This document shows positions 1-1,031 of a stretch of 1,031 bases of DNA, in pieces; the stretch's first letter is position 1; each line of letters starts with the position of its first letter. The notes below the pieces were generated by a model. That model had not been told where the DNA came from, searched no databases, and saw only the letters and a list, made by a program, of their open reading frames with translations. A program made the translations under genes and the position numbers. Source of the stretch: Escherichia coli (GTDB lineage: Bacteria > Pseudomonadota > Gammaproteobacteria > Enterobacterales > Enterobacteriaceae); the NCBI RefSeq assembly GCF_003334355.1, contig NZ_QOWP01000098.1. One strand, written 5' to 3'.

Positions 1-120
1 ATTGGTGCCCCCACCGGCGTGGCCTGTTCGGTGTGCCCCGGCGGAGTGACGTCCGGCCATCCGGTCAATCCCCTGCTCGGTGCAAAGGTCCTTCCCGGTG
101 AAACCGACATCGCCCTGCCC
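1..120 (+). other. C-terminal part of a PAAR-like domain (PAAR_RHS type) within the Rhs CDS; domain boundary approximate
   Basis: The segment IGAPTGVACSVCPGGVTSGHPVNPLLGAKVLPGETD has two Cys and one His in a Gly/Pro-rich context, consistent with the metal-binding cone of PAAR domains. It resembles the region just after the N-terminal PAAR motif of E. coli Rhs proteins. The start of the domain and of the gene should lie roughly 100 nt upstream of the window. Confidence 0.55.
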
Positions 121-1031
121 GCCCCGCTGCCGTTCATCCTCTCCCGCACCTACAGCAGTTACCGGACAAAAACGCCCGCGCCGGTGGGGAGCCTCGGCCC
201 CGGCTGGAAAATGCCTGCGGATATCCGCTTACAGCTGCGCGATAACACACTGATACTCAGTGATAACGGCGGCAGAAGCCTGTATTTTGAGCACCTGTTT
301 CCCGGTGAGGACGGTTACAGCCGCAGCGAGTCACTGTGGCTGGTGCGCGGCGGCGTCCTGAGACTGGATGAAGGTCACCGGCTGGCCGCACTCTGGCAGG
401 CGCTGCCGGAAGAACTCCGCTTAAGTCCGCATCGTTATCTGGCGACAAACAGTCCGCAGGGGCCGTGGTGGCTGCTCGGCTGGTGTGAGCGGGTGCCGGA
501 AGCGGATGAGGTGCTGCCTGCGCCGCTGCCGCCGTACCGGGTACTGACCGGGCTGGTGGACCGCTTCGGGCGCACACAGACGTTCCACCGCGAAGCCGCC
601 GGTGAATTCAGCGGCGAAATCACCGGCGTGACGGATGGTGCCGGGCGTCACTTCCGGCTGGTACTGACCACGCAGGCGCAGCGGGCAGAAGAAGCCCGGC
701 AGCAGGCCATTTCCGGCGGGACGGAACCGTCCGCTTTTCCTGATACCCTGCCGGGTTACACCGAATATGGCCGGGACAACGGCATCCGTCTGTCTGCCGT
801 GTGGCTGACGCACGACCCGGAATACCCGGAGAATTTACCTGCCGCGCCGCTGGTGCGCTATGGCTGGACGCCACGCGGCGAACTGGCGGTGGTGTATGAC
901 CGTAGTGGCAAACAGGTGCGCAGCTTTACTTACGATGATAAATACCGGGGCCGGATGGTGGCGCACCGTCACACGGGCCGGCCGGAAATCCGTTACCGTT
1001 ACGACAGCGACGGGCGGGTGACAGAACAGCT
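1..1031 (+). CDS. Rhs-family protein (PAAR-linked polymorphic toxin, probable T6SS effector), N-terminal region; partial CDS open at both ends, codon phase starts at nt 1
   Basis: Frame +1 is open for all 343 codons, which is very unlikely by chance over 1 kb. The translation carries hallmark Rhs N-terminal stretches (GAPTGVACSVCPGG, NPLLGAKVLPGETD, LPFILSRTYSSYRTKTPAPVG, GPWWLLGWCERVP, LPAPLPPYRVLTG, GEITGVTDGAGRHFRLVLTTQAQRAEEAR) and ends in YD-repeat motifs (RYRYDSDGRV). Codon usage (ctg, ccg, gcg, ggc) fits Enterobacteriaceae. The family is recognised from memory of E. coli Rhs proteins; the paralog (rhsA/B/C/D-like) cannot be assigned without a search. Confidence 0.9.
   Translation, partial: MGAPTGVACSVCPGGVTSGHPVNPLLGAKVLPGETDIALPAPLPFILSRTYSSYRTKTPAPVGSLGPGWKMPADIRLQLRDNTLILSDNGGRSLYFEHLFPGEDGYSRSESLWLVRGGVLRLDEGHRLAALWQALPEELRLSPHRYLATNSPQGPWWLLGWCERVPEADEVLPAPLPPYRVLTGLVDRFGRTQTFHREAAGEFSGEITGVTDGAGRHFRLVLTTQAQRAEEARQQAISGGTEPSAFPDTLPGYTEYGRDNGIRLSAVWLTHDPEYPENLPAAPLVRYGWTPRGELAVVYDRSGKQVRSFTYDDKYRGRMVAHRHTGRPEIRYRYDSDGRVTEQ
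880..939 (+). other. YD-repeat-like motif within the Rhs CDS (ELAVVYDRSGKQVRSFTYDD)
   Basis: YD dipeptides followed by R/G-rich turns fit the beta-hairpin YD/RHS repeat pattern. This is a protein-level repeat, not a DNA repeat. Confidence 0.5.
976..1031 (+). other. Canonical RHS/YD repeat within the Rhs CDS (GRPEIRYRYDSDGRVTEQ)
   Basis: RYRYDSDGRV matches the RHS repeat consensus RxxYxYDxxGR(L/V). This marks the start of the repeat shell that continues beyond the window. Confidence 0.7.

Follow-up and report, generated by a model that had tools for sequence, protein, structure and literature searches.

The stretch of DNA analysed here (1031 bases, referred to as the window) can be assigned with high confidence to residues 28–370 of an Rhs core protein of the E. 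coli RhsA/B/C/F type, in which a plug is followed by degenerate hairpins and then, from residue 321, by hairpins with the full YDxxGR signature. Position 880 of the window, at which codon 321 begins, is the point from which the repeats can be recognised in the sequence, and not the start of the shell. Based on the alignment to a solved relative and on a predicted model, the shell fragment starts near nt 61 (Pro48) and its barrel near nt 292 (residue ~125). An earlier note on this DNA had read nt 880 as the transition into the β-shell; that boundary is off by about 270 residues, and the start lies about 800 bases further 5′.

Rhs proteins of this kind are polymorphic toxins, the core of which would fold as a closed β-hairpin shell round a variable C-terminal toxin. 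Following the window from its 5′ end, the last 20 residues of a PAAR-like fragment lead into the DUF6531 plug and then into ~200 residues of degenerate hairpins and family-specific insertions, with the first hairpins that retain the full signature beginning at nt 880. By analogy, the latter would lie in the barrel wall close to the N-terminal aperture, and each DxxG(R/K) would form the tight turn of its hairpin. The shell would enclose the C-terminal toxin (the DUF4329 tip in the gene of strain 19M19), which may be freed after cleavage at the DPIGx18DPLG motif. Cargo encapsulation and delivery of the type VI secretion (T6SS) type are likewise suggested by the known relatives. The coordinates of all features are presented in Table 1.

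Table 1. Features of the window, with the evidence on which each is placed
Feature	Window nt	Residues	Strand	Evidence or detail
End of short PAAR-like N-terminal fragment, equivalent of Tse5-NT	1..60	28–47	+	Tse5 alignment starts at 48
N-terminal plug, DUF6531 (PF20148)	55..288	46–123	+	Pfam E 1.5e-16, model positions 1–74 of 74
His47-Pro48, homologous to the Tse5 self-cleavage site Lys47/Pro48	58..63		+	Alignment
First part of the barrel wall (predicted), degenerate hairpins without the Tyr-Asp signature	292..879	125–320	+	Model strands, Tse5 alignment
Cryptic YD-type repeat pair VLTGLVDRFGRTQTFHRE...ITGVTDGAGRHFRLVL	541..681	208–254	+	hhalign; turns DRFGR 214–218, DGAGR 239–243
First barrel hairpins with recognisable YDxxG(R/K)	880..1031	321–370	+	Turns DRSGK 327–331, DSDGR 362–366
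VVYDRSGKQVRSFTYDD	889..939	324–340	+	Motif coordinates
RYRYDSDGRVTEQ	991..1029	358–370	+	Motif coordinates

The rhs gene and its occurrence in E. coli genomes

The window belongs to the conserved core of the E. coli rhs genes (RhsA/B/C/F subfamily, 100% identity), and frame 1 of the + strand has no stop over all 1031 bases. In all three fetched contexts the gene starts 81 bases 5′ of the window, the first base of which is gene nt 82 (codon 28), and the whole gene has 1394 codons, up to about 1411 in these contexts. The placement at roughly codons 30–375 given in the earlier note was essentially right, the content being codons 28–370. For the continuation 3′ of the window, genes of 100% identity in other records were used. 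The product of one such gene (locus L001) matches the NCBIfam equivalog RHS_core (NF041261) with 2644.2 bits (cut-off 2000), residues 1–1247 aligning to profile positions 1–1261; this full-length match above the cut-off assigns it, as judged from its sequence, to the Rhs core proteins of the RhsA/B/C/F subfamily. That the window encodes an Rhs protein, as had been proposed, is borne out by this score and by the annotation: all genes among the matches listed are annotated as rhsB, rhsC or ‘RHS element core protein’.

Megablast against complete E. coli genomes found the window in 3887 of 5426, the median genome having it in three places, with 100% matches in two records. A 100%-identical copy is located at the rpmE–metJ site of strain 19M19, with ‘dsORF-f3’ next to it (L001 7001–8031); another is found in CFIAFB20180511 between ybfA and ybfC, which is the rhsC site, and in strain H1 a copy with 99.9% identity occupies the rhsB site (nikR–yhhH). 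The latter two copies are at L003 5001–6031 and L002 7001–8031, in this order. Since the same 1031 bases occur at differing rhs loci across strains, the paralogue of origin cannot be named; the rhs core is homogenised among paralogues.

The G+C content is 0.59–0.68 across the core and 0.30–0.35 from locus position 10600 (L001), that is, a G+C-rich core is followed by an A+T-rich tip. In the 19M19 gene the tip is a DUF4329 domain (E 1e-15). A PxxxxDPxGL junction is present, together with a DPxGx18DPxG aspartyl-protease motif (DPIGx18DPLG) of putative catalytic function. Directly 3′ of the 19M19 rhs gene is a small ORF of 107 aa annotated as dsORF-f3, presumably the immunity gene, for which NCBIfam gave no match. 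The core, tip, junction and small downstream ORF are the hallmarks of E. coli RhsA, RhsB, RhsC and RhsF (NF041261), and the window DNA, identical or 99.9% identical to rhsB/rhsC, differs in nothing from these: it is a member. A frameshifted IS1 transposase lies 3′ of dsORF-f3 in L001, where the stretch 10600–12191 takes in the tip, dsORF-f3 and this transposase.

As to other possible content, the ORFs on the minus strand and in the other frames, which reach 130 aa, were discounted, since a G+C-rich coding region within an annotated gene gives such ORFs as by-products. On the minus strand, inside rhs, there are ORFs at 421–813 (130 aa) and 257–577 (106 aa). An Rfam scan of the whole window returned zero matches. 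The name ‘RhsFI’, which refers to an EHEC locus under another name (PMC7618764), was also set aside.

Recognisable repeats at nt 880–1031 and downstream

The window contains two YDxxG[RK] motifs, at residues 326 and 361, where 0.008 are expected; none of 20,000 composition-preserving shuffles reached two. They are located in VVYDRSGKQVRSFTYDD and RYRYDSDGRVTEQ, the strings at which the earlier note saw the first clear appearance of the YD consensus. For the literal Y-D consensus, and at the sensitivity of single-sequence or Pfam searches, this holds (shuffles, Pfam and an HMM of the protein's own repeats). The Pfam RHS_repeat match at 318–351 is sub-threshold (E=4.8), and the earliest significant one is at 361–392 (E=4.7e-4), starting at nt 1000; the end of the window falls within the second YD repeat. 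The own-repeat HMM, built solely from eight repeats 3′ of the window, matches 320–340 (−1.3 bits, E 0.13) and 358–375 (6.2 bits, E 5.8e-4), and finds nothing before residue 320. In the profile–profile comparison (hhalign) with the canonical repeats at 420–760, residues 321–370 score 46.8 (probability 95%). A DNA-level repeat search of the window gave only short weak pairs, none of them inside nt 880–1031, so the repeats exist at the protein level only. We take the repeat region given for RhsA/B in UniProt to begin near residue 320.

In the AlphaFold model, strands are found at 322–326, 332–338, 346–351, 357–361 and 367–371 (pLDDT about 95), and the turns of the two YD motifs sit between 322–326/332–338 and 357–361/367–371. 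Along the full protein, Pfam RHS_repeat has 11 matches with E<=0.002 at 361–892; nine with E<=0.001, plus weaker ones, span residues 318–981. TIGR01643 (YD_repeat_2x) matches with 141 bits in 10 stretches, PF03527 (RHS) is located at residues 1143–1179 and TIGR03696 (Rhs_assc_core) at 1170–1247. The repeat scan along the extended ORF, which the earlier note had named as a check, thus yields at least 10 further significant RHS_repeat matches, the TIGR01643 stretches and the RHS-associated core domain.

These data leave next to no probability for a reading in which the two YD-like strings are meaningless chance matches in a G+C-rich frame. The motifs are indeed short and the first one is under the Pfam threshold, but their number is far above the shuffled expectation, the segment which holds them scores well against the canonical repeats, the repeats carry on downstream, and the motifs fall exactly at predicted hairpin turns.

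Plug, early barrel and the start of the shell

The closest solved relative is Tse5 (8cp6_B; sequence match E 1.2e-129), with a contiguous alignment over query residues 48–916 (E 1.6e-90). Residue 1 of the 8cp6_B chain (Pro48) falls on query Pro48. The Tse5 shell fragment comprises residues 48–1168; its N-terminal plug, 48–124, corresponds to DUF6531 and is directly followed by the barrel, which has 40 hairpins with the DxxGR motif as the turn and ‘significant sequence variability’ (PMC10684867). In the query, the DUF6531 plug is aligned to Tse5 48–124 and also directly precedes the barrel. The model strands of the plug are 55–65, 73–79, 103–106, 110–114 and 120–124; its hairpin turn is DNGGR at 115–119, with D115, G118 and R119 conserved in 32–34 of 35 homologues. 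Homologue counts here and below come from an alignment of 43 Rhs-sized sequences, drawn from a library with representatives at most 50% identical pairwise.

AlphaFold2 prediction of residues 1–1200 gave a mean pLDDT of 87.8 and a pTM of 0.79, with strands beginning at residue 55. According to Foldseek, the model matches the Tse5 shell 8cp6_B with a TM-score (normalised by target length) of 0.86 (E 2.5e-89) and RhsA 7q97_A with 0.84; the predicted fold is the closed spiral of β-hairpins that makes up such a shell. Between the plug and nt 880, the predicted strands are 131–134, 139–143, 173–176, 183–187, 206–213, 219–225, 234–238, 244–251, 289–298 and 312–316, which pair into hairpins at 131–143, 173–187, 206–225, 234–251 and 289–316, and the predicted helices are 156–160, 164–167 and 252–266. 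Helical or loop insertions break up the early barrel at 156–167 and 252–288. The pLDDT of this block (125–320) is mostly 78–96, with 58 at 191–200. Homology and the predicted model together point to its being barrel.

Repeats without the tyrosine are also found in this block. The pair VLTGLVDRFGRTQTFHRE and ITGVTDGAGRHFRLVL scores 50.8 against the canonical repeats 420–760 (hhalign probability 91.5%, E 8.5e-7), whereas 40 column shuffles of residues 125–320 have a mean of 12.2 (sd 3.0, maximum 25.7) and the reversed block 9.8. Residues 125–207 (9.4) and the plug 48–124 (14.2) have no convincing similarity to these repeats, and 255–320 (18.0) is marginal and not significant; parts of 125–207 and 255–320 are insertions, not repeats. 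The two turns of the pair lie between the model strands 206–213/219–225 and 234–238/244–251. Also, the window has five DxxG[RK] motifs (residues 115, 214, 239, 327 and 362), where 0.2 are expected, and in 20,000 shuffles the count stayed below four throughout. D239, G242, R243 and G217 are the same in all 38 of 38 homologues; the first turn of the recognisable repeats is conserved less than these upstream ones, with D327 present in 25 and G330 in 29 of 39. Judged by profile and turn conservation, residues 208–254 are a genuine repeat pair without tyrosine, ~340 bases 5′ of nt 880–1031 and separated from it by an insertion. Pfam did not detect the pair, and the upstream blank of the own-repeat HMM reflects limited sensitivity, as the profile–profile comparison did pick it up. 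The phrase ‘first appears clearly’ is limited accordingly, since the tyrosine-less pair scores 50.8 and the YD segment 46.8 in the same comparison.

At the level of the sequence, nt 880 is nevertheless a boundary. Across residue 320, Pro falls from 10.3 to 3.5% and Leu from 13.2 to 7.9%, whereas Tyr rises from 3.7 to 6.8%, Asp from 4.4 to 8.3% and Thr from 6.6 to 10.8%. The AT skew of the coding strand climbs from near 0 to values of +0.16 to +0.29 at L001 ~7900 (window nt ~880–900) and is high through the remaining core. Generic YD-repeat proteins longer than 2500 aa never have a best match to the Rhs protein that starts before residue 306, and mostly start at 405–435, whereas Rhs-sized homologues align from residues 1–3 or 45–48.

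What this boundary stands for can be read in more than one way. If the shell did begin structurally at residue 321, residues 28–320 would be a distinct N-terminal domain outside it, in line with Pfam RHS_repeat and the own-repeat HMM, which have no significant match before ~318–320. We consider this very improbable, and the transition into the shell that the earlier note placed at nt 880 did not hold: the Tse5 shell fragment is aligned from residue 48, in Tse5 the barrel comes straight after the plug, DUF6531 is found upstream of residue 124, the model has hairpins before residue 321 (those at 206–251 with DxxGR turns) and the TM-score given above against the shell of Tse5, and the cryptic pair lies within the supposed non-shell domain. 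A milder reading, compatible with the degenerate hairpins and adding to them, is that nt 880 is an evolutionary seam, at which a subfamily-specific N-terminal module (plug and diverged early barrel) was joined to a generic YD array. The start points of the very large generic YD proteins and of the Rhs-sized homologues, the shift in composition and the rise in skew (at window nt 900) are in its favour; however, the shift may just stem from the first barrel turn and the insertions being less constrained, without a separate origin, and the cryptic repeats show that the upstream part itself derives from YD repeats. We regard the seam as a tentative suggestion, with the odds somewhat against it.

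The preferred reading, a plug and degenerate hairpins followed by recognisable ones, has little significance beyond correct annotation, and its useful point is one of method. By motif or Pfam scan the YD repeats are detectable only from residue 321–361, ~270–310 residues past the real start of the shell at residue 48, so if the boundaries are set by repeat scans only, the plug and the first turn of the barrel receive the wrong label of an ‘N-terminal domain’.

Concerning the insertions, residues 252–292 are largely missing from Tse5 in the alignment and, as far as the sequences indicate, look like a subfamily-specific insertion of the early barrel. That residues 125–320 are not just decayed repeat but include surface insertions which are specific to the subfamily and have their own function is an unlikely idea in our estimate, the candidates being the helices at 156–167 and the charged helix 252–266 with the loop to 288. 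If it were true, the insertions might dock to a partner or to a membrane, a role that has been proposed for Tse5's helical protrusions, and could bear on the delivery of the E. coli RhsA/B/C/F proteins. The segment at nt 673–795 (residues 252–292) consists of the charged helix TQAQRAEEARQQAIS (252–266 in the model) and then a less confidently modelled loop (pLDDT 78–80).

N-terminal fragment and comparison with solved shells

Residues 28–47 (nt 1–60) are the only part of the window outside the shell fragment. Residues 1–47 match T6SS_PAAR_dom weakly (E 0.0015; 18.6 bits, where the cut-off is 124) and over profile positions 68–94 of 94 only, and the Pfam scan of the protein reported no PAAR domain; in the model, residues 1–30 have a pLDDT below 50. 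The N-terminus (MSGKPAARQGD..., L001 6920–7060) resembles the PAAR-like stub of Tse5-NT more than it does a full PAAR domain. Query 48-PVNPLLGAKV pairs with PVNPMLGSKL from residue 1 of 8cp6_B, and the motif PVNP(L/M)LG(A/S)K is conserved. In Tse5, N-terminal sequencing located the cleavage between Lys47 and Pro48, and the position matching Lys47 is a His in RhsA; Tse5-NT comprises residues 1–47, of which 30–47 are anchored within the shell with the last residues threading into it (PMC10684867). By analogy, self-cleavage may take place at His47/Pro48 and at the C-terminal DPxG motifs.

The similarities to P. aeruginosa Tse5 (8cp6; PMC10684867) include the PAAR-like N-terminal fragment of ~47 residues, the PVNP start of the shell at residue 48, the DUF6531 plug, the YD-hairpin barrel and the C-terminal plug with DPxG motifs, with near-identical N-terminal numbering; the TM-score of 0.86 is reached at 30% identity. 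The E. coli protein differs in having extra segments within 190–300 (alignment gaps and the model helix 252–266), a His before Pro48 where Tse5 has Lys, and a DUF4329 tip in place of a pore-forming toxin. A YD β-hairpin spiral shell closed by plugs is shared with RhsA (7q97), Rhs1/Tre23 (7pq5), RhsP (8h8a), YenBC (4igl), TcdB2-TccC3 (4o9x) and teneurin-2 (6fb3). All of these are among the Foldseek matches with probability 1.00, at an identity of only 10–24%, and other Rhs cocoons, Tc BC toxins and teneurins rank below Tse5 and RhsA. In RhsA and Rhs1, unlike the E. coli protein, the plug is preceded by long N-terminal regions that contain transmembrane helices and full PAAR domains, whereas in Tc toxins the shell is divided over two proteins and teneurins are eukaryotic receptors. 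Everything described here is established Rhs biology and was already known.

The last full codon of the window (nt 1027–1029) encodes Gln370, which is kept in 34 of 40 homologues and pairs with Tse5 Gln326 in the alignment. Tse5 Gln326 is among the residues which anchor the N-terminal fragment in the shell, next to the cleavage site (PMC10684867).
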